From Raillietiella orientalis (taxonomy: Eukaryota): DNA of 64,000 nt. Every line of letters begins with the position of its first letter. The first letter of the stretch is position 1. The stretch lies in contig JAYWIR010000094.1 in assembly GCA_036172245.1 (NCBI GenBank), positions 186,001 through 250,000 on the forward strand. Direction: 5' to 3'. The notes beneath the pieces were generated by a model that did no database searches, was not told the origin of the DNA, and saw nothing but the letters and a program-made list of their open reading frames with translations. Position numbers and translations under genes: made by a program. Shown in pieces: positions 12,252-46,860 of the stretch.

Positions 12252-12343
12252 CGGACACCGACGATGTGCACGCACAAATCATTTAAGAAGAAAAAACACT
12301 CGCTTTGCCACGCAGGCGGAGCGCAGGAAAAGCACGTCCGCTC

Positions 12344-15301
12344 TCCACAGCGGGGATTCGGCCAAGGGGCTCGCAACGAACGCGCGTATTTGCACGCGCG
12401 TCGTCACGAGAGGAACCTCAATGTCCGTCGTTTGGCCTTATACCGTGCCGAAGCCGAGCGACAAGCCTGGCAATCCGGGTCAGCCAGCATGCTGGGTGAC
12501 CTGGGCCGGGAACGTTCGTCGCCGTCTAAGGTACGGAATCTCGTGCGGTGTTTTTATTCCTCCCTTTACGCCAAAGCACCACCCTAACAAGACGCTCCGC
12601 GGCGATTGCTCATGAGTGGTTCCGTGGCGATAGGGGAGGAGGAGAGAGAAAGCCTCGATGAGCCTTTCACGACCGGTGAAATTCTCGCCGGTATCAAAAG
12701 GCTCAAGAAACGTAAGGCGCCAGGGGAGGACGGCTTGCCCGCGAAGTTTTTTCAGAGTTTCGCGGAAGCGCTGGCCCCCTTGGTGCTCGAGTTGACAAGG
12801 CGAATCCGAGACGAAGGCGATGTTCCCGCCTCGTTTTGGTCAGCAAGGGTGAGGCTCCTCTCGAAGGGAGGAGACCTCGGGAAGCTTTGCAACTGTCGTC
12901 CGATCACGATTGTGAACACGGACGCCAAGTTGATTGCCTGGCTGTGGGCTCCGCGACTGAAGCAGGTGTCCAATTCCATAATTAGCCCGGAGCAGACTTA
13001 CGCTCTTCCCGGCCGAAGTATTGAGGACAACCTCTTCTTCGCGAGCACATGGATGCACGCGCAGCGGAGTAATAAAGAAGAGAAAGGAAAAATTTGCAAC
13101 CCTACTTTGGGGCCGCCAGTGGGACAGGGAAGGGACCCTCATGTGGGAAAGGGGGCCTTAGCGATCGCAGTCGACCTCCGTAAGGCATTCGACTGTGTTG
13201 ACCAGGAACTCCTCTTGGAGCTCCTGGGTCGTATGGGCTTCCCACCCTCCTTGATTACCTACCCGCACTCTTGCTGGCGGAACGCGATAATCTCAATTAC
13301 TTTCAGTGGACAAAAGGTGTATGGCGTGCCGGTGCGGCGGGGTATAAGGCAGGGCGACAGCCTCAGCCCCCTGCTTTTTAGCACCTACGCTGAGTTGGTG
13401 CTAAAAGCGTACAGGGTGACTTTGGCCCCCTTGCCGAGCTCGTGCTCCGGCACGCCAGCCGTAGCGGCATATGCCGACGATCTTCTGCTCCTCTTACCTA
13501 TGTCCACCCCGGCGAAGGCGGTCGGAGATTTCTTCGAACTGCTTAGCCGTGGGGCCGGATTACAGGTTAACAGGGCGAAGTCGTCAGTGTTGCCAGTTGG
13601 AGCGACGTGGGCAGGGCAGCAGGACTGGGTCCGTCTGGGGATCCCCACGGTGAGGTGCATCAAGTGCCTTGATGTGCCGTTGGGGGACTACTCCCCTGCG
13701 GAAGCGTGGTCCAGCTGCCTCCAGAAAGTCGAGACGGCGATCGGCCCGTTCCTGGAAGGCAAGTTTCACATGATGGAACGGGCCGCGGTTTGGAACGCCT
13801 TTGCGGCCCCCCTCCTCCGCCTCTTGCTTGTTGTTTGCTCCGCCCCCGTGAAATCAAAAAAGCGGACAAAGGACCTCCTCCGCATAGCTCTTTGGGGCAA
13901 GGGGAGGCCCCGAGTCCCTTTGAAGGACTTGTGCACTCCGCGTCGGGACGGCGGTCTCAGCTTCCTGACGCTTTAGAGCGTGGAAATCCAGCTGCGATGG
14001 CGTACCCTCGCCATCGCAACGAAGATGTGGAGCACCGCTTGGTGCATTCCGGCCCGCCTGCTGGCCAGGCGTGTGTCCCGCTGCGAAGGACGCGCATCGT
14101 TTCTTCTGTGCCCTTATCAGAAGATTCGAAGATGCGGTGTAATGCTCGGCCGCATGGCAACCCTGGCAAAGGAGAACGACTGTATGGTTTGTGGCCCTGC
14201 TAACTCCTCCGCTTGTCAGGAAAAGACCGCTGGCACCTGGGCTAAGCAGAACCAGAGGTGCGAAGACCGGATGAACTGCCTGCTAGTAGGCTTATACGCC
14301 CGCCGCACTTTCCGTGAAATTCTTAAATTTCCACCGAGTTGCACGTAGGCGGAAGGCACACCCCTTGTTACAACGATGCCCTTCCTCCAAAGGGCGCTCC
14401 ACGGAAGCCGGAATCCAAGGTGGCAAGTCTGCTGCCGTATCGCTGGCAGAGAGAAGATGATGAGCGTCTGGACCATGGGAGAGTTGACAGATGCAACGAC
14501 CCCTAGTCTCCAGCCGCGTGGATTAAGAAGATGGGGCGAGCTGCTCGGCATTCGATTGAATGACCTGAAGTGGCCCCCGGTTCTACTTGGATCCAGGATT
14601 CTCCCCGTGAAGTGGCAGGAATCGGCGCTTCTGTGGCTGCATTGGGGTCTACCCTGCAACGCGCGCCGCTTCCACTGGACGCGGGGAAGAGTAAATCCTG
14701 CGTGTGCCAGGTGTGGGGAGCGGGAGTCGCTCCCCCACCTCTTAGTTGAATGTCCTGCCGTCCAGATTCTTTGGGATCGTCTGAAAACGGCCCTCCAATA
14801 ACCGGATGGTGGCAATGTTGAATGTATCTTCAGTCTTGTCTTCGTGCGGGACGCCCTCAGTTCAGCCGCAGCCCTGGCAGCACTTTGCTGCATTCGTGGT
14901 ATCGTGGCGGCCTGGAGTGATGCCGAAGATGAAGACTGCATCGTGAGGGACGTCATCGAGTATGCTTCTCGCTTCCTGCAGAGAGCTACCCGATGGCCCC
15001 ATCTAGGAAAGCTGAAAATGGAACTAGAAGGCATCCTGCAAAGGATGGGCGCTCCTAGCAGTTTTCTGTGATCCCTTCCCGGCCCTCCAAACTTTTTTTT
15101 TTTGTGGTTTGTTTTTCTCTTTTATTTTATTTTTGTTTTTTCCCCCATTCCCCTCCACTGCCGAGGAGAGCCACACCGGGCTGCGTCCCGGTGTCCCGGC
15201 AGTTCCGGCATTCCGTGGCCGTCAGTGAAGCCTTGTACCACGTTCTGTATTGACCGTTGAAATGTTTTTTAATAAACGTCCCGGCGTATCCGGGTGGCAT
15301 C
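12344..15301 (+). mobile_element. Element D: ORF2 from the GFG linker site to the 3' terminus, degenerate
   Basis: GFGQGARNERAYL..., RT ORF 12606-13976, CARCGERESLPHLLVEC, T-rich UTR, AATAAACGTCCCGGCGTATCCGGGTGGCAT at 15271-15300. Confidence 0.93.
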
Positions 15302-17909
15302 GCCGAAACCTGGAGGAAGTTGATGGAGGGGAAACTGGTCACAGAACTCTCGGACTGAACGTTTTATTTTGTCCCATTCAGCGAGAGTCTGCAGTTCGCA
15401 ACTACGCAGGAATGCGCGCAGATGTTTGCGCGCTCCTGCGAGTCACAACCAGTCCCCCGGCAGGCGCCACGCTTCGGAGGGTGAACCTCTGTCGCGCGAA
15501 TGAATGTTGATCACTAGCCGAGGGTGATCGGACAGCTCCGACGCAATTGCTCCTCGAGTCCCCACCCGCGTACACAAGTGGTTATCGAGGAACACGTGGT
15601 CGATTCTGCTTCTCGCCCCGGCTTCATCGGCAAACAAGTTGCATCTATGGCCATCGGTCAACGAGTTGTGTGCATAGCCGCACACAACTCGTTGACCAAT
15701 TGTGCTCGTATGTCGGGGGCTTCCGACAGCAGGCGGACGTTGAAGTCTCCCGCTATCAGATGCGCCCGCCGCACGCCTGCTTCGGCCAGCCAGTCTCGCC
15801 GCAGGTCTTCGAAGAACGCAGTGCGTTCTGTGCGCCTGTGGCTGGTGCAGGGCGCGTACAGGTTCGTGACTACGAGGTCGATCGATTCGGACCACTTAAG
15901 GACAAGTTGTCCGACTCGACCTTCCTCGTCGAACTGTGCACTGCGCACCGCATTGGCGACGGCCGGCTTCAGCAGGAAAGCCACTCCGCGGCAGTGGTCT
16001 CCTCCACCACGCCAAAGTAGCCTCCCCCCTGTGAGCCTCTCGATTTCCTGGACGTCCTCTGCTCTGAGGGCATGCACCTCTTGAAGAAGTGCCAGATCGA
16101 AAGGTCGCAGGGTGTCGGCCACGCTACGCCTCTTGCTTTCGCTACGCAGCCCGTTGACATTCCAACAGGCTATACGCAGCTGCCGGCAAGAGGCGATTCC
16201 ACGCATCATACTAGTGATGGTGGTGGCGTGTGTATTGCCGCCTCCTGTTCGGGAGGCGGCTGGTCGTTGTTCATCTGCGCTGGTGGCGTTCCCCCAACGA
16301 CCGGAACGTCGGCAGTCGGACTGAGGTCGATAGGAAGGTCCGACCGGATGCTATCCATGAAGGGATCCCGCTACCTCGCGGACATCGCCTCTGCGCTATC
16401 CGAGCGCATCTCCTCCTCCTCAGCCTGAGGGGGAGCGACGCGCATAGGGTTGCGCGACTTCCGGCCCGCCTTCCTCTTCGGAAGTGCGACGGTGGGAGGG
16501 TTTCCGGCTTCCGCCTCGGACCCGGAAACTTCCGGGCCCTTATCTCCGCCGGACGTCTGACGGCCTTCTTTGCAGCCTTAGGCGGCTGCATTAAGGTGGC
16601 CGCGAGTTCCTCCGCCGGCTTCGCGAAGTTTTTCTCGTCGCTGCTGCGCGCGTGTTTGTCGCAGGATTCCTGCGGCGGTTCTGCGGCGTTCGCGACGGTT
16701 GCGGGAGTCGCGTTCACCGATCGACACTCGATCGACGGAACGCGCTCGATTGTAACGCGGCATTCCTTTATGGACTCGCGCGGCGAAATTTTTGGTTCGC
16801 CGACCGCGGGTTTTTTGGGAACGCTCGCGTTCTGATTTTTGTTATTTTTTGTAGGTATTTTTTTTTTTTTTTTTGTGTTTCTTTTGCTTTTTTGTTTGAA
16901 ACGACTTTCTAGTTTTCCTCGTCGGCAGTTGGCTCAGAAGTCTCCTGCTCCTTGTGCACGACTTCTTCTGAGGTCGGCTGTTGGTTGCTTGTTTTTTGGT
17001 TTTATGCCTTCTTCTCCTCATTTGTCGAAGGGGCTGAAGGCGTTGTCGCGGCGTTTTTCGGGCACACAGCACTAGTGTGGCCCTTCGCGCCGCAGGTTGG
17101 GCATGTGGCATGCGGGCATCTCTTTTTAAGATGCGCGAATGTGTTGCACAGCCCACAGTATTTTTCCTTCCCCACGTACCAGAGGTCCACGAGCTCGTCG
17201 TTGACCTCCAGCTTGTGGGGAAGTTTTTGTTTTCGCGGAGAGTTACGCGTGCGGCAACTCGCCCACTGAATGCGCCTCGATAAGTAAAGGCGTTGGGCTC
17301 CGAACACATCAGGTATATCTCCGCGAACTTGTTGATTTCAGTGCGGATGGCTTCGTCGCTCATCCGCATCGTTGTACCGGTTAGGTGGATCACCATGGAG
17401 TGATCCACCGTGTGTGGGAGGAGATTCCGCCCATCGAACGGAACGGGCGTGCAGAGCAGTTTGTGCGTGAGCGCTGCATCTCTGCAGATCAGCTCCGCGA
17501 ACTGCTCGCCGCTTCGAATCGAGAAGCATAGAATCTCCTCGTCAGAAATTCCCATCTTACGGATGGCATTACCAAATTTCCGCGTTGTAAGCGGAGAATA
17601 TAAGTTTCCCACCTTATAAAGGAGGGCTGGGTTGCAGCCCTCCTTTATGTAGGCTTGCAATTCAGCAGCCACGTCCGGCGGAGCCGCCGCGGCCACCTTG
17701 TTCCACGCCCTCGCCGGGGTGGCGGGGGCTGATTTTGTGGTGGGGCATGACCCCACCTCCATAGGTTGGGGAGACGTGGGCCTCACGTCTCCCGTCGCAG
17801 GTACTGCGGCGTCTTCAGGCATTTCTGCCTTCCAACGGCCGCACTTCCACACTTCCAACAACTGTTCTTGGATTCGCTCACGGGCGCTAACCAAAAACGC
17901 GTGCGGCAC
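15302..17909 (-). mobile_element. Element E: 5' UTR, ORF1 and APE, cut at the GFG site by D
   Basis: ORF1 knuckles CGLCNTFAHLKKRC/CPTCGAKGHTSAVC; APE WNVNGL..GDFN..SDH; ends ...QFPLHQLPPGFG. Confidence 0.9.
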
Positions 17910-17934
17910 CGGCGCAGGTTTGCCGCAAGTTTGC

Positions 17935-20915: not shown

Positions 20916-20974
20916 AGCACGCCCTCATGGAGGAGGGCCTACAGGTGCCCTACGTCTGCAACGTACACCTGTTT

Positions 20975-23112
20975 TTTGGGGGAATCGCCGCCTCCACCCC
21001 TTCAGGGAGGATAGATCCATCCTGATCCATCTCCTCGGAATCAATTTCCGGATGTCCAAAGAGGATGTCCGAAAGGAATTATTAAAATTTGGCACCGTAA
21101 ACGCGCTGTAGAAAAAGCCTACTCCGTTTTGGAAGTATGATCTTCCCAATTGCTGTGAGGCTTCCGCGCGAATCACGGTGCGCGAAACTTGCTCCTTTCC
21201 AAACTAGCTGGAGGTAAACGACGAGCCCGTTGACGTTAAGTATGTTGGTAAGCCGCATTTTTGCGGGCATTCCAGCACTTGAGGTCACCTAAAAAAAAGG
21301 TACCCCTACTTGCAGTGCAAACAATGCCAGCAACCCAGGCACACTTTTCCGGTGTGCCCTCCAAATCAAGTCGGCGTCGCGTCCGCACGGAATGCTAACC
21401 ACTGCGGCCAAAAAAAAAGAGTTCTGGCAGCGCGAGAGCGAGCCGCCACTAAAGACCAAGCTATCGTGCCCCAGATAAAAGCCTGCTCCGAGATCCCGGA
21501 ATACTCGGACAAGGTCGAAGAGAACGGCCAGGAACATGGAGGGCACGTAGTAAAATCCAAGTTGCAGAAAAACCTCAATGAACCAAAAAAAAATTTCGCA
21601 AAACGCAGCGAGAATCTGCCGAGTCACGAAAAGATCGAACGCTGCTCTGTCGTCATCAAGCCCATTCCTGCGGTCGAACAGAGTGGCGAAATTGAACTCT
21701 TCGCTGCCCACTCTAAGCCCTCCGGCAAATTAATGCCGGTGGATACCGAACTGGCGGTATTGTCCGTCGTCAAACTCCTGCTCGAAGACGTCGCCTTTGA
21801 GCGAGCGGCGGTGGAGCTCGCTGCGTCCTTGCAGCGTCCCTCCAACCCCGCGAAAAAGACCTTAAGGCGTCCGACCTCGATCAAGAAGTCGGAGATCTCG
21901 AACTCTGACGCAGAGGAGGAAAACACAGACTGCGGCCTCGCGGCCTCGCGCCCGAGGGCCAGTAACACGAAGAAGGCTACCCGCAAACTTATCCCGTACG
22001 TTGAAAATGGAGACAATCAAGGGGAGCGAGCGTGCGAAGAGAGTGGGGAACACCAGGGACTCTCCTCCAGAGTTAATCAGACGCTGCGACGCTAGAGGAA
22101 GGGAAAAGGTAGAGTCTGTGCCCCAGGTGATTCAACTGCCTGAGATGGCCCCGGTATCCTTACTTGTCTCACCCACCTGTCCCTTGACAGGTGCTGCAAC
22201 ACGACGTTCCCAGCCTGAATGCAGGGAATCGCCTCTTGCCGCCTTCTGCGAATTGCCTGTTGCACCGTCAACGGGCTAAGCGACAACGGAAAGAGACGAG
22301 AGGTGGCCGCCACCCTGGCATCGTTCGACCTCGTGCTACTGCAGGAGATCCACGCGATCTCCGCAGACCAAGCAGCGGAGATCGAGTGTATCTCGGGTGC
22401 ACGGCTGCTGTGGCGCTGCGGCGCCGTTAAATATTGCGGTGTCGCGTTCCCAATTCTGCCAGCTGTCGAGGCCACGGCAAAGGGCGTACGGTTCGATAGT
22501 GCAGATCGAGTCGGGCAGTTGACCATAAGGTGGTCCGACTCCATCGATCTGGTCATTAAAAAGTGTACGCCCCAAGCGACAGCGACGCGTTAAGGGCAAA
22601 GGCAAGGAGAGATTTCTTCCTTACCCTGAGGAGCGAATATCTGGACGAATCGGGAGAGCGCAAAGCGCACCTAATCGCAGGTGACTCTAACCTTCACCTG
22701 CTGTCAGGTGCGTCCGACACACTTCGAAACCTTGTTAACAAGCTAGCGCAGAGATGCACACGCGCAACTTGGTCGCTGTGGATCCGGAAATAACCGACAG
22801 CATACATCTCGTGTTTCTTTACCAGCACCTATGCTTACGCGCGCGCAAGCGGGGCAAGTTACCGTCGCAACTGTCGGACCATGACCGGATCGTACTGGAT
22901 TTGCGCCTATGCGATAGAGGTCCCCCGTCATCTGCGTGGCGATTATCATCTGCGAGGGGGACTGGCTGAAGATTCCGGTAGCCGCGGAACATCTCCGCGG
23001 GTTTCTACGAGGTTACAGCTTGCAGACGCTTCAGGACTGCGACCAATTCAACCGCTCGGTCTGGAAGTTTTGTGACGAGATCTCTATGAACCTCCTACCT
23101 GCCGGGTCAGGC
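20975..23112 (+). mobile_element. Element H: partial ORF1 and APE, cut at the GFG-equivalent site by I
   Basis: CKQCQQPRHTFPVC; MQGIASCRLLRIAC at 22219; ends ...NLLPAGSG. Confidence 0.85.
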
Positions 23113-27994: not shown

Positions 27995-28117
27995 GTTGCC
28001 ACCCGGGTACGCCCTGGACGTTTATTGAAAAATACTCTTATTAAAGCGTGGTATAAGGCCCCAGTGCGGCCTTAGACACGGGACCTGTCGGGAAAGCGGC
28101 ATGCAGCCCGGCATGGC
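27995..28117 (-). mobile_element. Element K: 3' terminal fragment only
   Basis: AATAAACGTCCAGGGCGTACCCGGGTGGCAAC plus UTR similar to R and I. Confidence 0.85.
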
Positions 28118-28277
28118 AACTCTGCTGCTTCAGTTGATGAAGCTGATCCGAGACGAATGCGATGTTCCCGCCTCGTTTTGGTCAGCCAGAGTGAGGCTCC
28201 TACCGAAAGGGGAAGACTTCAGTTATTCAAGGAACTGGCGTGCGATCACGATTGTGAATACGGACGCCAAGTTGCTA
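28118..28277 (+). mobile_element. RT N-terminal fragment cut at DAKLL
   Basis: LIRDECDVPASFWSARVRLLPKG...NWRAITIVNTDAKLL. Confidence 0.85.
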
Positions 28278-33424: not shown

Positions 33425-33431
33425 TGCTCCA

Positions 33432-36400
33432 GGGTGGACGTGTTTTCTCGGTGCTCCTCGTGCCAGGAAGTCTCCCCCAGTGCAAGCGTCGTGTGGTTCG
33501 GTGGTCGATCAGGCAGCGATGCCTGACGCGACCACCAGGGATGGACAGGGGGCAGCAGCAACGCCGCCCCCAGAGGCGATGGAAAGCCAGGGGGTGCGGC
33601 AACGTCGCCCCCGGAGGCGATGGAGGTGGGGGCATCCGCCCCCACAGAATCGGTCCCCGCTGCAGCGCGGGCGTGGAGCGCCGTTGTGTCGGCGCCATCG
33701 CCTGCAGCCGCGGCGGAATTGTCGGCCTATGTAGAGGAGGGGTGCAACCCCTCATTGTTCTACAAGGTAGGCAATTTATATTCTCCGGAGAGCGCTCGCG
33801 CCTTCTCGAAGGGGATGCGCGCTCTCGATGTGAAAGAGGAGGAGCTCAGCGCTATGACCATCCGCAGGGGGGTCAGTACGTTCAGGTCATCTGCAAACAT
33901 GCAGATCTGGCCCAACGACTGCTTATAACCCCTGTTGTGATAGGGAAGCGCAGGCTTCTCCCCACTACGGCGGACCGCAGCATGGTGGTCCACATGTTAG
34001 GCGTAAACGCGCGAATGCGCGACGAACAGGTTCACGCCGCTTTGGAACAGTTCGGAACGGTACACGCGCAGTGGACGAAAGTAAGTCCTTTCGAGGACTA
34101 CACGGGCTGCAACACGGCCTCACTGCTGCGCGCGTGACCGTTCAAGAGGGCTGCACTCTTCCGCACAAACTGGTGGTCGAAGGCGAAACCGTCGCCCTCT
34201 GGTATGTGGGGAAGCCGAAATACTGTGGCTTCTGCTATACTTTGGGTCACCTCAAAAAGAGGTGTCCCAATGTGCAGTGCCAAGTATGCGGAACAATGGG
34301 TCACACGAGGGAGGTGTGCCCAAAAGCAACAGTGCAGGTGGTTTCCAAGAAAAACCTTAAAAAACGCCCTCGGCTTCTGCAGAAAAGGCTGGCGGAGAAA
34401 GCTGCCGCGAAGGCTGTGCCACCCGCGCCCAAGACCCAGGCCGCACCCGGGACCCTGGCGACCAACGCCGAAAAAGTTCAGGGAGCCGGCCAGGAGACTG
34501 GGTGGCAAGTGGCAACGGCCAAAAAATCAAACAAGGAGAGGAGGATGGAAAAGAAAATCGCCTACCAACAAAAGAAAAAAGAGCAGGGTAGCGCGATAAT
34601 TAAAGAGTGCAGCGTCGTTGTCGGACGCGTTCTCGATGTTGCCGAACGCTGCCGGAAAGAACTCGCCGCTACCGATGACCTCCCCTCTGTTGACACTGTC
34701 AACAGCGAGGGGAGCGAGCCGGCGGCGGCGTCCGTCATCGACACCACCATCGATGACGTAGCCTTTGCGCGAGCCGCGGAGGAGCCGGCAGCCTCGTTCC
34801 AGCCAGAACCCTCCAAGGCTGGCAAGACGGCCGTAAGGCGTCCGGCCTCCCCTCAGGAGTATCCCACTCCCGACCCCGAGGTGGAGGCCGGAAGCGCAGC
34901 CTCCGTTTCCACGGCACCGCGCAAGAAGGCTGGACGTAATTCCACAAAGCCATGGAAGCTCGTCTTCCCCGTCGAAGGGGAAGAGATGGCTTTCGCAAGC
35001 GAGGGTGCCATGAGCGTGGGAAATTCTCGGGACCCGTCGCCGGAGTGACTACCACGCGCGGACACGGAGGGGATGGAGGGGGTGGAGGCCGAACAGGTGC
35101 CTTAGGTGCCTGAGAAGGCCGAGACCCCCATGGAAATCCCGCCCGCCTCGCAAGATGAGGCGTCCCCCACACCTTAATCTTCCCAGCAGTAATGCTGGGA
35201 ATCTCCTCCCGCCGTCGTCTGCGCATCGCTGTTTGGAACGTGAACCGCATGACAGACGCCGGCAGGAGACGAGACATGGCCGCCCTTCTGGAGTCCTACG
35301 AGCTTGCGCTGCTGCAGGAGATCCACGTGATCTCTGCAGAACAAGCGCAAGAGATCGAACAAATCTCCGGAGGGCGGCTATGGTACAGGTATGGGAGAGC
35401 GAAAAGTTGCGGTGTCGCCTACCTGCTTCGGCCAGCCGTCGACGCCGCGGCTCGGGGCGTGGGGTTCGACGATCGCGGTCGTGTCGGCCAGCTGACTCTC
35501 AGGTGGTCCGAGTCGATCGATCTGCTCGTCACGAACGTGTACGCACCGAGCGGCAAGGACGTGATGAACAGGAGGGCGAGGAAAGAGCTTTTCCTTGCTC
35601 TCCGGCGAGACTGGCTGACCAAAGCAGGCGTGCGGAATGCCCATCTAATTGCAGGAGATTTCAACGTCCGCATGAAACCAGATGATCAGAATCCCGAGCG
35701 TGACCTGGTAAACGAGGTGTGCATGGCGGTTCACACCTGTAATCTGTTGGCCAGTGCACCGGGGATGGAGGACAGCATTGACCACGTGTTTCTTGACGAG
35801 CACCTGTGCCCTCGTGTGGGCAGGCGCGGCAAGTTACCGTGCGAGCTGTCCGACCATCGCCCGCTTGTCCTCGAGATCCATCCGAGCGACAGGGGCCCCC
35901 CCTCGTCAGCGTGGCGTCTCCCAGGGGACTAGCTAAAGCTCCCGGATGCGGCGAAACATCTCCGCACGTTCATACGGAGCTTCAGGCTGCGGACAATCCA
36001 GGATTGGGACCGCTGTAAGCGGTCGGTCCAAAAGTTCTGCGACCAGTTCCCTCTGCACCGCCTACCCACGGGTTTTGGGATCAGAGTCCGTAACGAACGA
36101 GCCTACCTGCAGGCCCGTCGTTACGTTAGGACCGCCGACATTTGCAGGGTGGCGGAATACAAAGAGGGAGCCGAGAGGCAAGCCTGGCAGTCCGGATCGG
36201 CCAGCTTACTGGACGATCAGGTCCAGGAGCACTCGGCACCTGCCCAAATCCGCGGCCTGCTGCGGAGTTACTACTCCTCCCTGTATGCCAGGCCACCTCC
36301 GGATAAAAACGTCTCACGACTCCTGCTTTCGAAAGGCGCTCCAGCTATCGGAGAGGAGCAGAGAAAGACCCTCGACGAGCCTTTCACGATGGACGAGACC

Positions 36401-38990
36401 CTGTCGGCCATCGGAAAGCTCAAGAGCCGAAAGGCACCAGTAGAGGACGGCCTGCCCGCGGAGTTCTATCAAACTTTCGCTGCTGAGCTTACCCCCCTTT
36501 TACAGCAACTCACCTTGCTGATACGCGAAACAGGTGACGTTCCCGCCTCGTTTCGTTCGGCAAAGGTGCGGCTCCTCCCTAAGGGAGGAGATCTGAGGAG
36601 CATGAACACCTGGCGTCCCATCACAATAGTGAATGCGGACGCCAAGTTGATAGCCAAGATGTGAGCAGAGCGTCTGCGACGGGTTGCCAGCATCTTTATC
36701 AGCCCGGAACAGACATATGCTGTTCCCAAGCGAAGCATGGAGGCGAACCTGTTCCTCGCTTCCACCTGGCTAGAGCTCCAACATGAAAGGAGCTTGGTGC
36801 GCAGCCGGAATTCCGGTGCGTGCGCCGGCATGGGGTGGGATGGTCGGGTGGGGTAGGGAGCCCTTGCGGTCGCAATCGACTTGCGGAAAGCATTCGATTG
36901 CGTCGACCAGAATCTCCTTCTGGAGCTTCTGGAACGCTTGGGCTTCCCGGCCTCATTAGTGGCCTATCTACGCTCCTGCTGGCGCGACGCGCTCATCAAT
37001 GTTACTTTCAGCGGGCAGACCGTTCACGGCGTGCTAAAGCGGCGTGGAATCCGGCAGGGAGACAGCCTGAGCCCCTTGCTCTTCAGTACCTACTTTGAAT
37101 TGGTACTGAGAGCGTACAGGGGAACTCTGGCGCACCTGCCGCACGACTGTGCCGATCCGCCGGCCGTTTCAGCATATGCGGACGACCTTCTGCTGCTGCT
37201 CCCTATGTCCACCCTGGCTGCGGCGGTCGAGGAGTTCTTCGACCTGCTGCATCCGGGAACCGGACTTACGGTGAACAGGGCGAAGTCGTCCGTGATGCCA
37301 GTTGGTGCGGTGTGGGCAGGGCAGCAGGACTGGGTCCGTTTGGGAATCCCTACGGTGAGGTACTTCAAGTACCTTGGTGTGCCGTTGAGGGACTACTCCC
37401 CTGCGGAAGCGTGGTCCAACTGCCTTCAAAAAGTAGAGACGGCGATCGGCCCGTTCCGAGGCGGCAGGTTTTTCCTGCCTGAACGGGCCGCGGTTTGGAA
37501 CACGTTCTCGGCTCCTCTCCTAAGCCCCCTGCTTTTTGTTTGCCCCAACACAGAGAGAATAAAAAAGCAAACAAAGACCTCCTCCGTATCGCCCTTTGGG
37601 GCAACGGGAGGGCCCGAGTCCGCTTAAAGGACTTGTGCGCTCCTCGTCGGGATGGTGGTCTGGGCCTCCTGACGCTGGAGCGGCTGGAGCTTCAGCTCCA
37701 GTTCCGCTTGTCGGCACTCGTTCCAGAGTTGTGGTGCACCTGTTGGTGCGTCCCTGCACGTCTCCTTCTCCAGCAACCCACCGGCAAGACGGGACTGACG
37801 TCGTTTCTTGCACTCCGTCGCCTTGTGAACCGATACGAACTCCAGCTACGGAGGGTGGCTGCGCTGTATCGGAAAAACCCAGGATTGCTCACCTGTCGCC
37901 CGTTGAACGGTAGTGCCTGGTTGCAGGAAACCGTTCGAACGTGGGGACAGTTCGGCATGCAACGCTCCCAACAGGAACAAAGGTTCCTGTTTGGGGGTTA
38001 CAGAAGTTGCACGCATCGCGAGATCCTAAAGGATCCAAAGAAGAGAGCGTGGGCAGGAAGAACCCCCCTCGCTGCTGCGCTACCCTCCCTGATGGAAGAT
38101 CTGGACAGCGATGTTGCGGCGAAGTGGGTGGTTACAGTAACAATTTCCGGAAAGGAGAAGAAGATAGGAGAGTGGAAGACGGGCCAGTTAACAGACGCTG
38201 CAACCCCAAGTACGCCTCCCAATGGACTTCTGCGCTGGGGCGCGCTGCTCGATGTTCCCATTGAACATTTGAAGTGGCCCCCGGTGCTCATGAACACTTC
38301 CGCCCTCCCCTTAAAATAGCAGGAGTCGACTCTCCTTTTGCAGCACTGGGGACTACCCTGCAACGCCCGCCGACACCACTGGACCTGAGGAGCGGTGGAC
38401 CACAATTGCGTCAGGTGTGGGGATAGGGAGTCCGTCCCCCACCTGCTAGTGGATTGTGTTGCCCTTTGGCCCCTTTGGTTTCGCTTTGCCGCGGCCATCG
38501 GAATCCCCTGCGGCAACCCCAGGGACGCACTGAAAGCCCTCTTCGTTGCCGACGCCCTTCGGCCAGCGGCCTCGTTAGCAGTTTTGTGCTGCCTGCGCGG
38601 GATCGTCACCGTTCGGAGCAAGGCTACGGAAGGACAACGCGATCAGGGTGCCATCCAGCCAGCCTTCCAGTTCCTTAGGAGGGCGTGTCGATGGCCCATC
38701 CTGGATCCAGAAATACAGAAGGAGCTTGCCGGCATCCTACAAAGGATGCAACGGCCCCACCAGCAACTGTGATCCCTTCCCTTACCCTCCCAACTTTTCT
38801 TTTCTTTCTTGTTTTGTTTTTTGTTTTTCCCCCTTCCCCCTGCTGCCGTAATGGACCGTACCGGTCTGCGAACCGGTGACCCGGCAGGCTCTGTGTTCCT
38901 TCGTGCGTGGCTGGAGCAATGGTCTAGCCACCGCACGTCTTTGTAAATGTTTATTTTACAATAAACGCCCCGGCGAAATCCGGGCGAAAA
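33432..38990 (+). mobile_element. Element P: full-length (~5.56 kb) but mutated copy; the best structural reference in the window
   Basis: GGGTGGACGTGTTTT start; ORF1 ~33519-35192; TAATG; ORF2 35192-38772 with stops and frameshifts; AATAAA-hairpin at 38960-38990; imperfect 14-bp direct repeat on both flanks. Confidence 0.95.
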
Positions 38991-41900
38991 TCGAACGCCT
39001 TGTGGAGAGCGACTGCGAGCGCAAGGGCCCCCTTCCCCGCCCGGGGGTCCCTTCCCAACAAGGCTGGCGGCCCCAATGTGGGGTTGCCGACTTTCCCTAT
39101 CCCTTTATTTTCTCTTCTCTGCAGGTGCACCCATGTGCTTGCGAAGAAGAGGTTGGCATCCATACTTCGCCCGGGAACAGCATAAGTCTGCTCCGGGCTG
39201 ATTACGGATTCTACCACCTGCCCCAGACGCGAAGCCCATAGCCCTGCTATTAACTTGGCGTCCGTATTTACGATCGTGATCGGACGCCAGTTCTTTAAAT
39301 CCCTGAGGTCTCCCCCTTTCGGAAGGAGCCTCACTCTGGCTGACAGAAACGAGGCGGGAACATCGCCTTCGTCTCGGATCAGCCTGTTCAACTCAAGCAG
39401 CAGGGGTGCCAGCTCTTCCGCGAAGCTCTGAAAGAACTTTGCGGGCAAGCCGTCTTCCCCAGGAGCTTTACACCTCTTGAGCCTTTCGATACCGGCGAGA
39501 ATTTCGCCGGTGGTAAAAGGCTCGTGGAGGCTTTCCATCTCCTCCTCCCCTATTGACGGGGCGCCATCCGGAAGCAAGCGCCGGAAAGGGTTTCAATCCG
39601 GGAGCTATCCGGCGTAAAGGGAGGTATAAAAACTCCGCACGAAATGCCGTACCGACGCCGGGGACGAACATTCCCGGCCCTGGTCGTCCAGCAAGCTGGC
39701 CGACCCGGATTGCCAGGCTTAGCGTTCGACCCAGGCGCGATACTCGGCCAGGCGACGGACATTAGGGGTTCCCTCGTACCTGCGAGCCCGTAAATAGGCC
39801 CTATGGTTGCGAGCACCCTCGCCGAATCCGGGGGGCAGGCGATCCAGGGGGAACTGCTCACAAAACTCTTGGACCGATTCCTTAAAAAGGTCCCAGCCCT
39901 GGAGATTGTGGAGCGTGACGCCTCTCAGGTATTCGCGAAGGTGTTCCTTTGCACCGGCAGACGCCAATCCCTGGATGGCGGTTTGCCAAACAGTCGCGCT
40001 TCAGGGATTCCAGCAACCTGGTACCCTAGCTGTATCCCCCCTTCTTGCTTGGAGCGTAAACGTTCGTGACGATCAGTTCGATCGAGTAGGACCAGCTGAG
40101 AATCAGCTGACCGATCCGACCGTCGTCATCGAAGCGCACGCCCTTCACGGCAGCGTCCAGAGCCGGCTTCACGAAGAAGGCGACCCCGCAGGTGTTGCCG
40201 AGGCCGCACCGGCAATACATACGACCCCCGCGATCGTCTCGATCTCCTGGGCGTCTGTCGCGGTGATCACGTGGATCTCCTGCAGCAGGGCCAAATGGAG
40301 CTCACGCAGGGTGTCGGCCGTATCTCGCCTGTTACCGTCGTCGCGCAGCCCGTTGACGTTCCAGCAGGCGGAGCGAATCCGACGGCGACTGGCGAGCCCA
40401 GGTGCTACTTCTGGGAAGAAGGCGATGCGGCGTCCGCAACCTGCTGAGGCGGGACGCTAGGTGGAATAGGAGGGTCAGGTGCTGAAAGCACTTAATCCCA
40501 CTCCTCTATAGGAAACTGTACGTCGAGCGGGTCACCCACAGGTGGGGTCGCGCCTACCTGTTCGCCCCCCTCCATGGGGGCGGGCTGTTCAGGCTCGGCG
40601 ACTGCAGGTAGGACTTCGCCCCCCTGCTCACACGCCTTCATGGGGTTGGCCGGCTCGACGGCTTCCGAGCGTAGGAGTTCCCCTCCGGGATTCCCACGCT
40701 ACCGCTAGCTTCCTGCTTCTCCTCCTCGCTGGTAAAGGGGAGGCGCCTCCTGGGTTTCTGGGACTTGCGTCCCGACTTCCTGGGGGGTGCCTCCGAGAAT
40801 GAGGATGCACTTCCGGCCCCCAGGTCCGACTCACCTGTGGGGGCCTTTTTCGCGGGAGCCGGCGTTCGCACGGCCTTGCGTGAGGGGTTCTCACGCTCCG
40901 CCAGCGTGGCCGCGAGCTCCTCCGCCGCCTTTGCGAACGCGGCGTCCTCGGTGTCGACCGGCGCGTCGCGCGGCTCACCCTCTGTTTGCACAGAGGGTTC
41001 GCCGTCGCGAACTTCGGGCGCGACGAAAACGGCGAGGGGAGGCTCGTCGCTCCGGGTGGCATCTTCGGGAACGACGATACGTTCCAGTGCCACCGTGCAC
41101 TCGCGTACGGTTTTCGAACGCGGCCAGGGTTTTTTCGCCTTACCTGCCGGCTTTTCTTTTTTCTCCTTCAAAGGAGCTTTTCTCTCTTTCCTGGCTGCTA
41201 CAAGTTGCCAGTCCTCTTCACCTTCCGCCTCTTGGGAAGGTTTATCCTCCGTCTTTTCTTTTGGAGGTTGAGGATCTGGCAGCTTCAGCCGGCTAGCGTC
41301 CGCCTTAGGTCTTGTGACCTCTAGTGCGGGTTTCCTCTGCGCCTTTTTTGCGGCAGGAGTAACCGGGGTGGAGCATTTTGGGCACACACGTCGAACGTGG
41401 CCCTTCTCCTTGCACATGTGGCATTGGATGTTAGGACACCTCTTGCGAAGGTGTCCTATGGTATCGCAGTAGCCGCAATACCGGGGCTTTCCCACGTACC
41501 AGAGGTCCACGCTCTCTTGCGCGACCTCCAGCTTGTGGGGAAGCCCACAGTTCTTACTCACGGTTACCCGCGCTGCAGCCTGGCCTCCGAAATGGCTATT
41601 AAAGTCTTCAAAGATTGTTGCCTTAGGCCACAACGCGTGCACCTCGCCGAACTTCTGTAGTTCTTGTGCTACCGCAGCGCGAGTCATACGGCTCGTTATT
41701 CCAGTTAAATGGACCAACATGGTGCGGTCCATCGTCACCGGCAAGATCTTCCGGCCGTCGACGTTCAACGGATTGGTGATTAGAGTCTGAGCCAACGTGA
41801 TCTTCTTGCACACCACCTCGACTCGCTGACCTCCGCTGAGAACGGACAAACCGTCCAGATCTTGTTCTCTTACTCCGGCGTTTTGCAGCACTTTCGAAAA

Positions 41901-42242
41901 CGCGCGTGCCGTTTTTCCGTCAATTAAGGGGCCTACCTCGTACATCAAGCGTGGCTTGTACCCAGCTGCTTGGTAGGCCGCCATCTCGGCCACGGTTTCC
42001 GCGCTCGGCGCGGCCACCATGGCGCTCCAGCTTTTCGCCTTGAACGGCTAGGGCGATTCCGGGGCGGACGCCCCTGATTCTGTAAACTGTGGGGGTGGGC
42101 AAGCCTCCCTCACCCCTACCTCCATCGTGGTGTCCTCAGACATTGCTTCCAACGGACACCAACGATGTTCCACAGTAAACAACACAAGAAAAAACCGCTA
42201 CCTGTCGACTCACTCGGAAGCGAAGAAAAAACACGTCCACTC
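38991..42242 (-). mobile_element. Element Q: 5' UTR, ORF1, internally deleted APE, and RT up to HKAFD
   Basis: GAGTGGACGTGTTTT start; 460-aa ORF1 stretch 40638-42020 (CGYCDTIGHLRKRC/CHMCKEKGHVRRVC); APE breaks off after NVYAPS near 40040. Confidence 0.92.
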
Positions 42243-42257
42243 GCCAAGGGCTTCTGC
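42243..42257 (+). repeat. Isolated 15-bp target-site remnant between tandem elements Q and R
   Basis: GCC AAG GGC TTC TGC resembles the host P-K-G-F-G codons. Confidence 0.75.
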
Positions 42258-45200
42258 GTTGTCACTCGGGTACGCCTGGGGCGTTTATTTGTAAACTCTA
42301 CATGCGTGGTACGAGGCCCCACCACGGCCGTAAACACGCGACCTGTCGGGACACCGGGACGCAGCCCGGTGTGGCACTCCCCGAAAGCGAAGGAGGATGG
42401 GGATAAGACAAAAAGAAAAATAAAAAGAAACAAACAAAAAGGAGTTGGAGGGAAGGGAAGGGATCACTGTTTGCTGTGGGGAGGGCCCATCCGTCGAACG
42501 AAGCCCTCGAGGTCAGTCTGCATATTCCCCAGTTGGAGCCATCCGGCAGCTCTTCGCAAGAAGCGTTGGACATGCGGGATGACATCCCTCGCCTGTGGAC
42601 CCACTCCTTCGTTGTTGGGTCGCTCCATGCCGCCACGATGCCACGGACGCAGCACAAGGCTGCGATGGCTGCGGCTGGCTGTAGTGCGTCCTTCACGAAG
42701 AGGAGCCGAAGAACGTCTCTGGGGGTGCTGCCCGTACAGAGCCCAAGGTTCGTCCCGAACCGTTCCCAAAGGGGTCGGAGGGCTGCACAATACACAATAA
42801 GGTAGGGAAGCGACTACCGCTCCCCGCAACTGGCACACGCAGGATCCACAGCTCCCCTCGTCCAGTGAAAGCGGCGCGCGTTGCAGGGTAAACCCCAATG
42901 CAACAACAGCAACGCCGACTCTTTCCACTTAAGGGGCAGGATCCTGGACTCCTTCATCACCGGGGGCCACTTCAGCTCATCCCTGGGGATGGCGAGCAGC
43001 TCGCCTTATCTTAATAATCCTCGCGGCTAGACGCTCGGGGTTGTGGCGTCGGCCAGTTCTCCTGTTGTCCAGCCGCTGATCAACTTCTTGCGTCCCTCGA
43101 TGCAGCAGGAGACTTGCCATCTTGGCGTCCGGCTGCTGTGAAGTGCCCTCCTCAGGAAGGGCAGCGCCGTAGCTAGGCAGGTCGTCTCTGCCCACGTGCA
43201 TCTTGCTCGACTCTCCAGGAGATTCCGCAGCGTGCAGCGGGCGATGCCACCCGGATACGCCGAGACGTTAATTAAAAACATTTCAACGGTCAATACAGAA
43301 CGTGGTACAAGGCCCCACTGACGGCCACGCAATACCGGAACTGCTGGAACACCGGGACGCAGCTCATTGTGGCTCTCCTCGGCAGTGGAGGGGGATGGGG
43401 GAAAAAACAAAAATAAAATAAAAGAGAATAACAAACCACAAAAAAAAAAAAAACAGTTTGGAGGGCCGGGAAGGGATCACAGTAAACTGCTGGGAGCTCT
43501 CATCCTTTGCAGCGGGCGTAGGGGCTGCATCCGAGAGGATTTCACGTTTTGTGGCTCCTCTGGTTAACCGCTGCCCACGTTCCAATATTCTCCTCCAGCC
43601 AAGCGGGGGAGTTGGCAAGGCAGCAAACCATCCAGCTGTTCTCCTTGGCCAATGTTGCCATGCGCCCGAGCTGTAGACCGCATCTTCGCATCTTCCGGCC
43701 ACGGCTCAGGAGAAAAGACGCGAGTCCATCGAACCGGGACACACGGCTGGCCCGGAGGCGTGCCGGAGTGCACCAAGGGGTGCTCCACATCTTCGCTGCG
43801 ATGGCGAGGGTTCGCCACCGCAGCTACTTCTCCACGCACTCCAGCGTCAGGAGGTCAAGACCGCCGTCCCGACGCGGAGCGCACAAGTCCTTCAGAGACA
43901 CTCGGGGCCTCCCCTTACCCCAAAGGGCGATACGGAGGAGGTCTTTCATCCTGTTCATCGATTCCACGGTGAAGGGGCACACAAAAAGCAAGGGGCGGAG
44001 GATGGGGGCGCGAAGGCGTTCCAAACCGCGGTCCGTTCCGGCAAGTGAAACTTGCCTCCGAGGAACGGGCCAATCGCCGTCTCCACTTTTCGGAGGCAGC
44101 TGGACCACGCTTCCGCAGGGGAGTAGTCCCCCAACGGCACACCTAGGTACTTGAAGCATTTCGCCGTGGGGATCTTCAGACAGACCCAGTCCTGCTGCCC
44201 TGCCCACGCTGCACCAACAGCCATCACGGACGACTTTGCCCTGTTCACCGTAAGCCCGGTGCCTCGATTCAGCAGGTCGAAGAACTTCTCGACCGCGGAC
44301 GCCGGGGTGGACATAGGGAGCAGTAGCAGAAAATCGTCCGCGTATGCCGAAACCGCAGGCGTACCAAGATAATCGCGCGGCAGGTGTGCCAGAGTCTCCC
44401 TGTACGCTCTCAGCACCAATTCGAAAAAGGCGGTTAAGAGCAGGTGGCTCAGGCTGTCTCCCTGCCGTATGCCGCGTCGCACCGGTACTCCGTGCACGGT
44501 TTGCCCTCTGAAAAGAACATTAATGAGCGCGTCGCGCCAGCTGGAGCGCAGGTAGGCCAACAAAGATGCCGGGAAGCCCAAGCGTTCCAGAAGCTCCAGT
44601 AGGAGATTCTGGTCGACGCTGTCAAATGCTTTACGCAAGTCGACAGCGACCGCAAGGGCTCCCTTCCTTACCCGACCGTTCCGTCTCCCGCCAACGGACG
44701 CACCGGAATTCCGGATGCTCAATAAGCCCCTTTTTTGTTGGAGCTTTAACCATGTGGAAGCGTGGAACAGGTTTGCCTCCATGCTCCGCCCGGGAACAGC
44801 ATAAGTCTGTTCCGGGCTGATGAAGATGTTGGCAACCCGTTCCAGACGCTCTACCCACATCTTGGCTATCAACTTGGCGTCCGCATTCACTATTGTGATG
44901 GGACGCCAGTTGTTCATGCTCCTTAGGTCTCCTCCCTTCGGGAGGAGCCGCACCTTTGCTGAACGAAACGAGGTGGAAACGTCACCTGTTTCGTGGATCA
45001 GCAAAGTGAGATGATGTACCAGAGGGGTAAGCTCTGTCGCGAAAGTTTGGTAAAACTTCGCGAGCAGGCCGTCCTCCCCTGAAGCCTTCCGCCTCTTGAG
45101 CTTTCCGATGGCCGAGAGAATCTCGTCCATCGTGAAATGCTCGTCGAGGCTTCTTTTCTCCTCCTCCCCGATCGCTGGAGCACCTTCCGGAAACAGAAGT

Positions 45201-45448
45201 CGTGAGACGTCTCGCTTCGGAGGCGCCCTGGCGTACAACGAGGAGTAAAATTTCTTCACAATTTCGCGCTTCTGAGCAAGAGCCGAGTGCTCCCGGCCCT
45301 GGTCGTCCAGCAAGCTAGCCGACTTGGATTGCCAGGCTTGCCTCTCGGCTCCCGCTCGATACTCTGCTAACCTCCGCATGTCGGGGGTTCTCGCGTAACG
45401 TAGGGCCTGAAGATAGCACCTCTCGTTACGCGACCCATTCCCGAATCC
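42258..45448 (-). mobile_element. Element R: ORF2 from the GFG site to the 3' terminus; chimeric; contains S
   Basis: GFGNGSRNERCYL...AYADDF...; terminus AATAAACGCCCCAGGCGTACCCGAGTGACAAC. Confidence 0.93.
43244..43507 (-). mobile_element. Element S: 264-bp 5'-truncated D-type copy with a perfect 11-bp TSD
   Basis: TGCAGCGGGCG at 43233-43243 and 43508-43518; the insert matches D ~15040-15300. Confidence 0.92.
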
Positions 45449-45458
45449 CTCTCCTCGA

Positions 45459-45825
45459 AAGCGGACGTGTTTTTCCGGCGCTACGCGAACGAGCAGCGGA
45501 AAGCGGTTTTTTTTTGGTTCAGTGTGTGCTTTTTCACATCGTTGGTGTCCGATGGCATCGCTGCCAGAGGACACCACGATGGAGGTAAGCGTGAGGGAGG
45601 GTAGCCTCCCCCCCACGGCCTACAGAATCAGGGGCATCCGCCCCGGAATCGCCCTCGTCGCCCAAGACGAGGAGGTGGAGCGCCAAGGTCGCCGCGCCGA
45701 GCGCGGAAACTTTGGCTGAGCAAGCGGCCTACAGGGCCTCCGGATATAAACCATCCCTGGTTTATAAGGTAGGAAACCTGTTCGACGGTCGCACCGCGCA
45801 TGCCTTTAGCAGGGCACTACAGGAA
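45459..45825 (+). mobile_element. Element T: 5' UTR and ORF1 start
   Basis: AAGCGGACGTGTTTTT; MASLPEDTTMEV; YRASGYKPSLVYKVG. Confidence 0.85.
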
Positions 45826-46350
45826 TTCCCCGGATCGTTCCATCGTCACCGGGTAAATCTTGCGGCTGTCTACCGTGAGTGGGTTACTTTGCAAACGGTG
45901 TGCCAAGGTGATGTCTTTGCACACTTCCTCGATGCGGTGACCCCCGCTGAGGGCGGAGAGGCCGTCAAGGACTTGTTCCAGTACATTCGCAGACTGCAGC
46001 GCCTTCGTGAAGGCACGTGCAGTATTGCCGTCCAATAATGGGCCTATCTTATAGACAAGCAAGGGCGTGTACCCTTCTAACCTTTAGACCGACTGTTCAG
46101 CCAAGGTTTCCGCGCAAGGCGAGGCTACCGTGGAGCTCCATGTCCTCGCCGTCGGAGAAGATGACTCCGTGTCGGATGCCTCCGTCAAAGTAGGCTGTGG
46201 GGATGAACTCACCTCCTTGATACCTACATCCATCGCGATGTCCTCAAGCATCGAAGCCACTGTACACCTTCGATGCGAAATCAAACACCACACAGGAAAA
46301 AAAACGCTTTCCGAACTCGTTAGCGGACCGACGGAGAAACACGTCCGCTC
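45826..46350 (-). mobile_element. Element U: 5' UTR and ORF1 start
   Basis: GAGCGGACGTGTTT at 46350; LVYKIGPLLDGNTARAF. Confidence 0.85.
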
Positions 46351-46860
46351 GCGGCAGGATCTGGGCAGCGGGTCCGCAACGAAAGGGCGTATTTGTATGC
46401 CCGTAATTACGTAAGGACCCCAACGTCCGTCGTCTGGCCGAATACCGCGTCGGGGGTGAGCGCGAAGTTTGGTAATCCAGGTCGGCCAGCTTGCTGGTCG
46501 ACCAGAGCCTGGAGCACTCGGCCCCGGCTAGAATACAACACCTCGTGAGATTTTATTCCTCCCTCTACACCAGGGCCTCCCCGGAGCGAGACGCCTCCCG
46601 GAGCTTGCTTCCGGATGATGCCTCAGTAATAGGAAAGGAGGAGAATTTAAGTCTCGACGAGGCTTTTACCACCGTCGAAATCCTCTCGGGTATCCAAAGG
46701 CTCAAGAGGCGTAAAGCTCCAAGGAAGGACGACTTGCCCGCAGAGTTCCTCCGGTGCTACGCGATAGTGTTGGCACCCCTGGTGCTTCAGTCGACATGAC
46801 TGATACGAGAGGAAGGCGGTGGGCAGCCAAACTAAACCAGAGGGGCAACGAAACGTGGAT
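46351..46860 (+). mobile_element. Element V: ORF2 fragment from the GFG-equivalent site, internally deleted
   Basis: AAGSGQRVRNERAYL...LKRRKAP; 46817-46860 encodes WAAKLNQRGNETW, homologous to WAAVNQRSHETW in A. Confidence 0.82.

Follow-up and report, generated by a model that had tools for sequence, protein, structure and literature searches.

A family of APE-type non-LTR retrotransposons (LINEs) has repeatedly inserted new copies in antisense orientation into the ORF2 of its older copies, forming a dense nested island. Our analysis confirmed that the recurrent antisense insertion at one spot of ORF2 in related copies, called site A in the following, is real. The targeting of this spot is strong yet not absolute, i.e. 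it is preferential and not exclusive. All evidence comes from one window of 64 kb, the whole stretch of DNA that was analysed. It covers one edge of a GC-rich island of at least 47 kb, which consists almost wholly of one L1-like LINE family (Table 1). The GC content of the island is approximately 58% and that of the adjoining flank 40-47%; one 3' fragment lies outside the island at 50.7-51.5 kb, in flank that does not belong to the family.

The assignment to the APE-type LINEs is based on the ORF2 of the reference copy E1 (window 4020-6494), after which all amino acid positions are numbered. It contains an Exo_endo_phos match at aa 42-249 (E = 4e-15) and, in the same ORF, an RVT_1 match at aa 498-758 (E = 1e-14), hence APE endonuclease (EN) and reverse transcriptase (RT) are both located within ORF2, while ORF1 of the family carries two CCHC knuckles. 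Further hallmarks of LINEs are 5'-truncated copies with complete 3' ends (72, 124 and 270 nt) and target-site duplications, which comprise 12 nt for E5 and 9-10 nt for the 270-nt insert. Among solved proteins the human L1 ORF2p was closest (E = 1.7e-41, compared to 1e-10 for R2; a sequence match and not a tree), and the EN part matched only L1 endonuclease chains. The elements can probably be regarded as L1-like LINEs of the APE+RT type. Their 3' end reads AATAAACG..GGGTGGCA(A/T)C, with GGGYGRAAATC as variants, and has no poly(A) tail, and the complete 5' end corresponds to GCGGACGTGTTTTT with 0-1 mismatch.

Table 1. Copies and fragments of the LINE family along the window. A slash within or after a motif marks a junction; aa positions refer to ORF2.
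Feature	Position	Strand	Content	Boundaries and site A
M0	1..2379	-	resident copy, ORF2 from ~aa 292 to end (tblastn, sequence)	site A intact at 2281; upstream end adjoins E1 5' end
E1	2380..7249	+	5' end, ORF1, ORF2; reference for aa numbering	site A intact at 4988; ORF2 C-terminal region cut (...KWQQSALL/, site S) by E2 3' end
E2	7250..12343	-	full-length copy	3' end in E1 (site S), 5' end at H2 site A (12343/4); own site A intact at 10175
H2	12344..15301	+	host RT half	resumes ~19 nt before site-A nick; 3' end (GGGTGGCATC) in site A of H1
H1	15302..17906	-	5' end, ORF1, host EN half	stops exactly after GFG (GGTTTCGGC/)
H3	20941..23112	+	ORF1, host EN half	stops after GSG (GGGTCAGGC/)
I3	23113..25476	-	insert	3' end at H3 site A; itself cut at site B (AKLL/A) by H4 5' end
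H4	25477..27994	+	5' end, ORF1, EN half	stops after GFG (GGATTTGGT/)
124-nt insert	27995..28118	-	5'-truncated, 3' end only	at H4 site A
X/M0-like piece	28119..28277	+	ORF2 aa 459-514, 89% identical to X	stops at site B
~72-nt fragment	28278..28350	-	3' end	inserted at site B
V	30255..31221	+	ORF2 aa 184-514, E5-like (81%)	stops at site B; site A intact at 30674; left end adjoins sense-oriented 3' end at 30254
X, 3' part	31222..33431	-	ORF2 aa 592 to 3' end	3' end adjoins V at site B
E5	33432..38990	+	full-length copy	antisense in X at HKAF/D (site C); flanks CACAAGGC(G/A)TTC; 5' boundary uncertain by ~6 nt
X, 5' part	38991..42242	-	5' end to ORF2 aa 596	5' end adjoins W scrap; site A intact at 39821
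W	42243..42257	+	15-nt scrap of host site A (GCCAAGGGCTTCTGC)	between X 5' end and Y 3' end
Y	42258..45459	-	RT half to 3' end; carries sense-oriented 270-nt 3' fragment, 43243-43512	3' end at site A of W; own site A taken by P 5' end
P and Q	45460..46350	P +, Q -	head-to-head 5' fragments, P from 45460 and Q to 46350; each 5' UTR + ORF1 start	internal join near 45830-45930
Z	46351..46856	+	host RT half	resumes ~16 nt before site-A nick; second cut near aa 498, antisense 3' end at 46857

Site A lies right after the second Gly codon of LPxGFG (aa 323/324 in E1), between the Exo_endo_phos and RVT_1 matches. Eight junctions at this point had been listed in a first-pass annotation of the window, and all of them were found again. 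Four are element 3' ends, at 15301/2 (host on the minus strand, GGTTTCGGC/GATGCCACC), 23112/3 (GGGTCAGGC/GTTGCCACC), 27994/5 (GGATTTGGT/GTTGCCACC) and 42257/8 (GGCTTCTGC/GTTGTCACT), which all hit the same phosphodiester in hosts of differing sequence. The other four, at 12343/4, 42242/3, 45459/60 and 46350/1, are complete 5' ends, beyond which the host ORF2 resumes 15-21 nt upstream of the site-A point. Inspection of the sequence showed all eight to be antisense. Moreover, inserts became hosts themselves: H2 was inserted in H1 and then struck by E2; H4 entered I3, an insert in H3, and was in turn struck at its own site A; and Y was inserted at W and then struck by P. The 15-nt scrap W between two inserts is read as a target-site duplication that was struck a second time, since such a remnant is expected if the duplicated target is used again. 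Six copies in the window keep site A unoccupied.

Because the two flanks of a site-A insertion never come from one and the same host in the window, a target-site duplication at this position is something we infer and do not see. The flanks are mismatched in the case of E2 (site S of E1 versus site A of H2), X (site B of V versus site A of W) and the 124-nt insert at 27995 (H4 versus an X-like piece). Twin priming was considered and rejected, because termini meet internal sites at the junctions, both antisense partners (E2 and X) are full-length copies, and the subfamily of E2 is not that of the host that it adjoins.

The family does not restrict itself to site A. In addition to the eight junctions already listed, 12 further family-into-family junctions were found at other positions, hence the fixed position assumed for the family in the first-pass annotation accounts for only 8 of the 20 junctions counted. 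What stands of the original claim are separate antisense events at the same nucleotide position in diverged subfamilies; its exclusivity does not. A second antisense hot spot, site B (AKLL/A, aa 514), accounts for three junctions, and the two junctions at site C (HKAF/D, aa 595) belong to one antisense event with the 12-nt duplication. The remaining seven are located elsewhere, four of them in sense orientation.

Furthermore, the motif GGNTTYGG by itself does not define the target. The occupied sites of H3 (GGGTCAGGC), Z (GATCTGGGC) and W (GGCTTCTGC) are without GGNTTYGGN, and 12 other occurrences of GGNTTYGG in the window bear no insert. When a weight matrix was built from site A, sites B and C ranked beyond the 1000th of approximately 10,000 positions, hence the hot spots as a whole are not explained by a single simple motif; the sense-oriented site in Y ranked 883rd of 93,954. 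An RNA gene is not the target either, because Rfam gave no family in the window.

Several explanations without a preferred target have to be weighed. Chance clustering or assembly chimeras are hardly credible. The region is nearly pure repeat and difficult to assemble, but if junctions fell uniformly along an element of 5.6 kb, in either orientation, finding 8 of the 20 family-into-family junctions within one 21-nt interval would have P = 1.9e-17, and finding 4 of 11 3' junctions at one phosphodiester P = 2e-14; antisense orientation (16 of 20 junctions) gave a two-sided P = 0.012. Moreover, a mis-join needs shared sequence, which is absent between the GFG codons and the 3' terminus that adjoins them in antisense, and the termini are complete to the last base. 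A comparison by eye of the antisense 3' end with the stretch that follows GFG gave approximately 43% likeness, which is not meaningful. Logan contigs of one DNA run (X1, 0.14 of words) were compared with window positions 2380-22379 at 80% likeness, which resulted in 1005 matching contigs and 498 loose ends; the contigs were mostly approximately 300 nt long and less than 90% alike, and among the joints listed they split between paralogous copies, so that they carry no usable information on the breakpoints or on the validity of the junctions. It is also very improbable that the GFG junctions are segmental duplicates (which the first-pass annotation had named as the alternative to separate events) or retrotransposed composite copies of one or two ancestral insertions. 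The island is clearly rearranged, with mismatched flanks and head-to-head 5' fragments, and the insert termini at the two site-B 3' junctions are nearly identical. However, the identities of hosts and inserts do not support an origin from one event. As had been proposed, the hosts come from different subfamilies: the seven broken hosts are 58-76% identical among themselves, yet reach 87-89% identity with copies that are intact at the site. The EN halves of H1, H3 and H4 share 58-62% pairwise, compared to 87% for H4-E2 and 73% for H3-E1, with site A intact in E2 and E1; among the RT halves, identity is 89% for Y-E1, 75-76% for H2-X/M0 and 74% for Z. The host flanks at the four site-A 3' junctions all differ, and the inserts, too, derive from different subfamilies, with identities of 65-77% in their terminal 120 nt and of 55-75% in their initial 150 nt.

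Two further explanations concern how the site is chosen. Transcribed resident copies might expose their coding strand in R-loops or hairpins, so that a weakly specific endonuclease nicks favoured points; this is rather unlikely, even though it predicts antisense insertions at several discrete positions and the three antisense hot spots found (A, B and C) do not look related to each other, with GGNTTYGG alone being insufficient. It also fits the predicted folding: in all 7 copies folded, an inverted repeat of up to 12 bp is located 4 nt to the 5' side of site B, and in all 5 copies folded, site C falls within the 3' arm of an 8-9 bp inverted repeat. But these hairpins may merely follow from conserved codons, around site A the copies do not share a conserved predicted fold, and the use of one phosphodiester by all four site-A 3' junctions in differing hosts is a mark of sequence-specific nicking. 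Homing by 3' read-through, as reported for R1 of Bombyx, is improbable. Here, the transcript of a donor residing at site A would run into the antisense host flank, and this extension would anneal to the nicked coding strand of a different copy and thereby fix the junction, and the choice of the site would be inherited from the location of the donor. The two site-B inserts would fit such a heritable choice, with 97% identity over their last 32 nt and a terminus (GGTCACGCC) that differs from that of the site-A inserts. In contrast, the host sequence beside the junction agrees with the subfamily of that host (the 21 nt of H4 up to the junction match E2 in full, 21/21), hence nothing shows a donor-derived flank. 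Moreover, a 3' fragment with 93% identity to the terminus of H2 was found at a clearly different position, in sense orientation.

We consider it likely that new copies integrate preferentially into resident copies at the GFG site by target priming, with recursive nesting and at least one further antisense hot spot (AKLL/A). In the resident ORF2, the nick in the coding strand would follow the second Gly codon of LPxGFG, in the stretch that separates the APE from the RT domain, and the free 3'-OH would prime reverse transcription of the incoming RNA, with the consequence that the new copy lies antisense. The other strand would be cut approximately 10-20 nt upstream. Since each new copy would bring an intact site, nesting becomes recursive and the island grows on itself. 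Target-primed reverse transcription and the order of the two nicks are deduced here, and recognition of the sequence may be due to the element's own endonuclease or RNP. The ideas that ORF2 represents a safe site and that its disruption disables a competitor may likewise apply.

Self-nesting LINEs are already known, namely Zepp and CNL1. The elements of the Tx1 group (Tx1L in Tx1D, Keno, Dewa) and of the R1 clade are APE-type with a defined 3' end without poly(A), as is the family described here. They integrate at one nucleotide position of a repeated target, which for Tx1L is another transposon; the targets are foreign (a DNA transposon, snRNA, tRNA or rRNA genes) and occupancy is near-exclusive. 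In contrast, the present family targets its own ORF2, always antisense, and has just 8 of 20 junctions at site A, which differs from strictly site-specific elements of the R1/R2/Tx1 type with essentially all copies at one target. In the descriptions available, CNL1 of Cryptococcus neoformans is placed with the R2/MoTeR group and is subtelomeric, beside telomere repeats, with a sequence specificity said to be undefined, whereas the family here is APE-type, apparently L1-like and not visibly telomeric. Zepp (Chlorella/Coccomyxa) and ZeppL (Chlamydomonas) are described as poly(A)-tailed L1-clade LINEs, of which Zepp nests into 3' regions and thereby forms tandem arrays of mostly 3' ends (PMC8226300). 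The clusters of Zepp are described as local GC peaks, with 61% versus 53% (PMC8226300; PMC3446292), and resemble in this respect the island and its flank reported here. However, compared with the description in PMC8226300, the insertions here are antisense at a coding position between APE and RT (those at sites A, B and C all being internal to ORF2), full-length copies are common and the 3' ends lack poly(A). The sole sequence link is a match to a Coccomyxa L1 ORF2 with 27% identity.

A fixed antisense target in ORF2 was not found described in the literature searched, in which subscription journals are few; relative to this literature, the antisense geometry at a fixed codon represents a new aspect. 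The target choice of APE-type LINEs is poorly understood, and the island offers one precisely defined putative nick site and at least one secondary site, both open to testing in vitro. Preferential self-integration would show a retrotransposon that confines itself to the "safe" niche of its own dead copies, and a route by which LINE-only islands, like the Zepp clusters of green algae, could grow. More speculatively, and with considerable doubt, the family may have evolved to home to a block of codons in its own ORF2 that is under functional constraint, killing the resident and adding a target at the same time. The resulting self-perpetuating, strand-alternating island might act as a landmark of the chromosome, for example a centromere, the trait would predate the split of the subfamilies (25-40% diverged), and recognition beyond a short motif may be needed. 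If this were true, the target codon block could not mutate away without killing the element, and recognition could involve RNP-guided or structure-guided nicking at several positions of ORF2.

In the genome contigs scanned, the terminus pattern gave no match. A 5-bp stem in the 3' terminus was possible in 87% of cells, with no covariation. Among 13 matches from the protein search, P0001 on a 2.9-kb contig was the sole close relative (72% over 405 aa), and the remaining 12 had 22-28% identity; in the genome contigs, P0001 gave one match with 26% identity. The ESM Atlas returned generic APE+RT clusters only, and the relatives in metagenomes (80 of 132 loci kept) were all 21-30% identical.

In the window, the retrotransposon family strongly prefers one position of its own ORF2; further hot spots are secondary, and some of the insertions are untargeted. 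The targeting proposed in the first-pass annotation was right in kind, but too strict. The preferred position, named site A, immediately follows the GFG codons of LPxGFG. In the numbering of the reference copy E1 it falls between aa 323 and 324, where it separates the APE from the RT domain. All eight site-A junctions were read from the sequence and compared in host orientation, which confirmed the earlier observation. In the four 3' junctions, the second Gly codon of (L)PxGFG, or of an equivalent motif, is immediately followed by the reverse complement of an element's last bases; the host flanks end with GGTTTCGGC (H1), GGGTCAGGC (H3) and GGATTTGGT (H4) in the three EN-half hosts and with GGCTTCTGC in W, a 15-nt scrap of a host site A. 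In the four 5' junctions (W and the RT-half hosts H2, Y and Z), a complete 5' end adjoins ORF2 sequence restarting 15-21 nt ahead of this position. The range of 9-19 nt noted before is nevertheless fair, since the first 10 nt of the resumed sequence in Y, which are unlike its close relative E1, may represent filler. The insertions at site A are antisense in eight of eight cases, and an unoccupied site A is kept in six copies in the window.

The eight junctions were not the full set. Mapping of all termini resulted in 20 junctions in the window at which a terminus of the family meets DNA of the family, hence 12 more exist beyond site A, and the orientation over all 20 is 16 antisense versus 4 sense (two-sided P = 0.012). 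Site B (AKLL/A, aa 514, directly after GCCAAGTTGCTA) accounts for three of them; the hosts of its two 3' junctions share only about 70% nucleotide identity, but over 32 nt the termini of their inserts are 97% identical. At site C (HKAF/D, RT motif A) one event was found, the full-length copy E5 inserted antisense in copy X, with both flanks present and a 12-nt duplication containing one mismatch.

Coordinates of family features, junctions away from site A, inserts with mismatched flanks and further observations in the window
Feature	Position	Orientation or strand	Detail
Best-preserved reading frame	4020-6494		Exo_endo_phos (APE) aa 42-249; RVT_1 aa 498-758
Site B, 3' junctions	28277/8, 31221/2	antisense	
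Site B, 5' junction	25476/7		H4 5' end against I3 (insert in H3)
E2 3' end in E1 (site S)	7249/50	antisense	ORF2 C-terminal region
3' end in Z	46856/7	antisense	near aa 498
E1 5' end in M0 (resident ORF2 copy)		antisense	93 nt upstream of site A
270-nt 3' fragment in Y		sense	9-10 nt duplication
3' end adjoining V (E5-like ORF2 piece)	30254	sense	at aa 184
H1 5' end in another copy		sense	3' region
5' end adjoining another copy	19260	sense	
E2, flanks			site S of E1 versus site A of H2
X, flanks			site B of V versus site A of W
124-nt fragment, flanks	27995		H4 (E2-like) versus X-like piece
Predicted hairpins at sites B and C, examples	5516-5561, 5770-5815		
Head-to-head 5' fragments P and Q	45460-46350		internal joint near 45830-45930
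Open frame past E1 matches	7905-7250	-	
Open frame past E1 matches	14634-15301	+	
Solo 3' fragment	50680-51497	+	outside island; end at 51497 is CCGGGTGGAAATC
Distant LINE copy	48543-49424	-	
T-rich low-complexity stretch	16836-16897		within H1 ORF1

Most likely, these insertions result from target-primed reverse transcription at a nick of the coding strand, which is the mechanism we favour. The family's own endonuclease or RNP would nick the coding strand after GFG, reverse transcription would start from this nick, and the second strand would be cleaved 10-20 nt upstream. The main argument for a sequence-specific nick is that all four 3' junctions fall exactly on the same bond. Among the rivals is chance or an artefact; the pattern is far beyond chance, since uniform placement gives P = 1.9e-17 for eight of 20 junctions in one 21-nt window and orientation. 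Accessibility or structure of the strand is another candidate, and here sites B and C have to be considered: the NWRP and DAKL codons form a predicted inverted repeat that reaches up to 12 bp and ends 4 nt ahead of site B, and site C is located within the 3' arm of another predicted repeat of this type (8-9 bp, around the KAFD codons). Hairpins are predicted at both sites in every copy folded, while those predicted near site A are not conserved between copies. When a weight matrix based on nine sequences of site A is applied to E1 and E5, site A takes the first rank, and sites B and C come beyond rank 1000; the sense site in Y has rank 883 of 93,954. Of the 21 matches to the motif GGNTTYGG in the window, nine are at site A and 12 at none of the mapped termini, and the motif is absent from three occupied sites. 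A further rival is read-through homing, comparable to the read-through priming of R1.

Duplication of one event, which the first-pass annotation had itself named as the outcome that would speak against its reading, is opposed by the divergence of hosts and inserts. The EN-half hosts H1, H3 and H4 share only 58-62% identity over about 900 nt, and the RT-half hosts Y, H2 and Z 66-71%; no EN half and RT half match as a pair among the site-A hosts compared. Closer relatives are found elsewhere: H4 is 87% identical to E2, a copy with an intact site that matches H4 in all of the last 21 nt ahead of the junction; identity to E1 is 73% for H3 and 89% for Y, and identity to X and M0 is 75-76% for H2 and 74% for Z. 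The inserts are diverged as well, with 65-77% identity over the last 120 nt for the four at site A, and 55-75% over the first 150 nt. Seven hosts, together with the W scrap that lies between two different inserts, hence give eight events. Regarding INDEPENDENCE of site-A events, the sequence comparisons indicate that the events are independent. Moreover, inserts become hosts in turn: H1 carries H2, which carries E2; H3 carries I3, which carries H4 with the 124-nt fragment; and W carries X, which carries E5, as well as Y, which carries P.

The flanks of one insert frequently come from different hosts, and therefore both copies of a target-site duplication were seen at no site-A event in the window. 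Random deletion is unlikely, because the termini are complete. Ordinary explanations are unequal recombination between two inserts on the same strand or an insertion-mediated deletion through capture of the cDNA end at a second break. The head-to-head fragments P and Q belong to different subfamilies, comprise the 5' UTR and the first 90-110 ORF1 codons, and neither has a terminus at their joint. Copies truncated at the 3' end cannot be produced by LINE insertion, hence deletion or another rearrangement is needed at this place.

Self-nesting, site-preferring LINEs are already known as a kind, and we rate the antisense ORF2 position as a variant on them. Comparable systems are Tx1L in Tx1D, Keno and Dewa. 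A fixed antisense target within a LINE's own ORF2 was not found in the literature searched, although the primary Zepp papers may contain positional detail. Self-nesting Zepp LINEs are described as giving GC peaks, with a single peak on each chromosome (PMC3446292), and CNL1 is said to insert in its own copies (PMC12810828); PMC9940879 and three preprints gave no further positional detail.

The GC content of the window is 56-62% from 1 to about 47,100 and 38-49% from about 48 kb on, a sharp step (1-47100 versus 48000-64000) similar to the GC peaks reported at clusters of Zepp. The GC-rich part consists nearly completely of copies of this one family, and the island extends beyond the left end of the window. 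Complete 5' ends have the sequence GCGGACGTGTTTTT, and the 3' ends have AATAAACG(Y)CCCGGCG..GGGTGGCA(A/T)C, with variants and without poly(A); a 5-bp terminal stem is possible at the 3' end, but covariation gives no support for it. ORF1 contains two CCHC knuckles. ORF2 has more than 330 further residues past the preserved frame, where E1 has a frameshift and P0001, a close relative from a 2.9-kb contig, stays in one frame; the '650-nt 3' UTR' is thus partly coding, because ORF2 extends beyond the stop first assumed. In other copies, too, the frame remains open beyond the end of the tblastn matches to E1 (KWQESALL, then LLHWGLPCNARR), so the family ORF2 is longer than E1 suggests. The closest solved protein is human L1 ORF2p (E = 1.7e-41), followed by R2 proteins (1e-10 and below). 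Generally, the family is isolated: among 5.8 billion proteins one is 72% identical and all others reach at most 28%.

The flank of the solo 3' fragment (CAAGGTGTATCGG) is unlike family DNA, hence the family can also insert elsewhere. The distant LINE copy is about 30% identical to aa 65-359 of ORF2 and keeps the motif FPLHRLPRGPG uninterrupted. The T-rich stretch is probably a common simple repeat; in the DNA sequencing run X1 its bin has a mean contig depth of 1269 versus 2-68 in the other bins, and the majority of the loose contig ends listed sit there.
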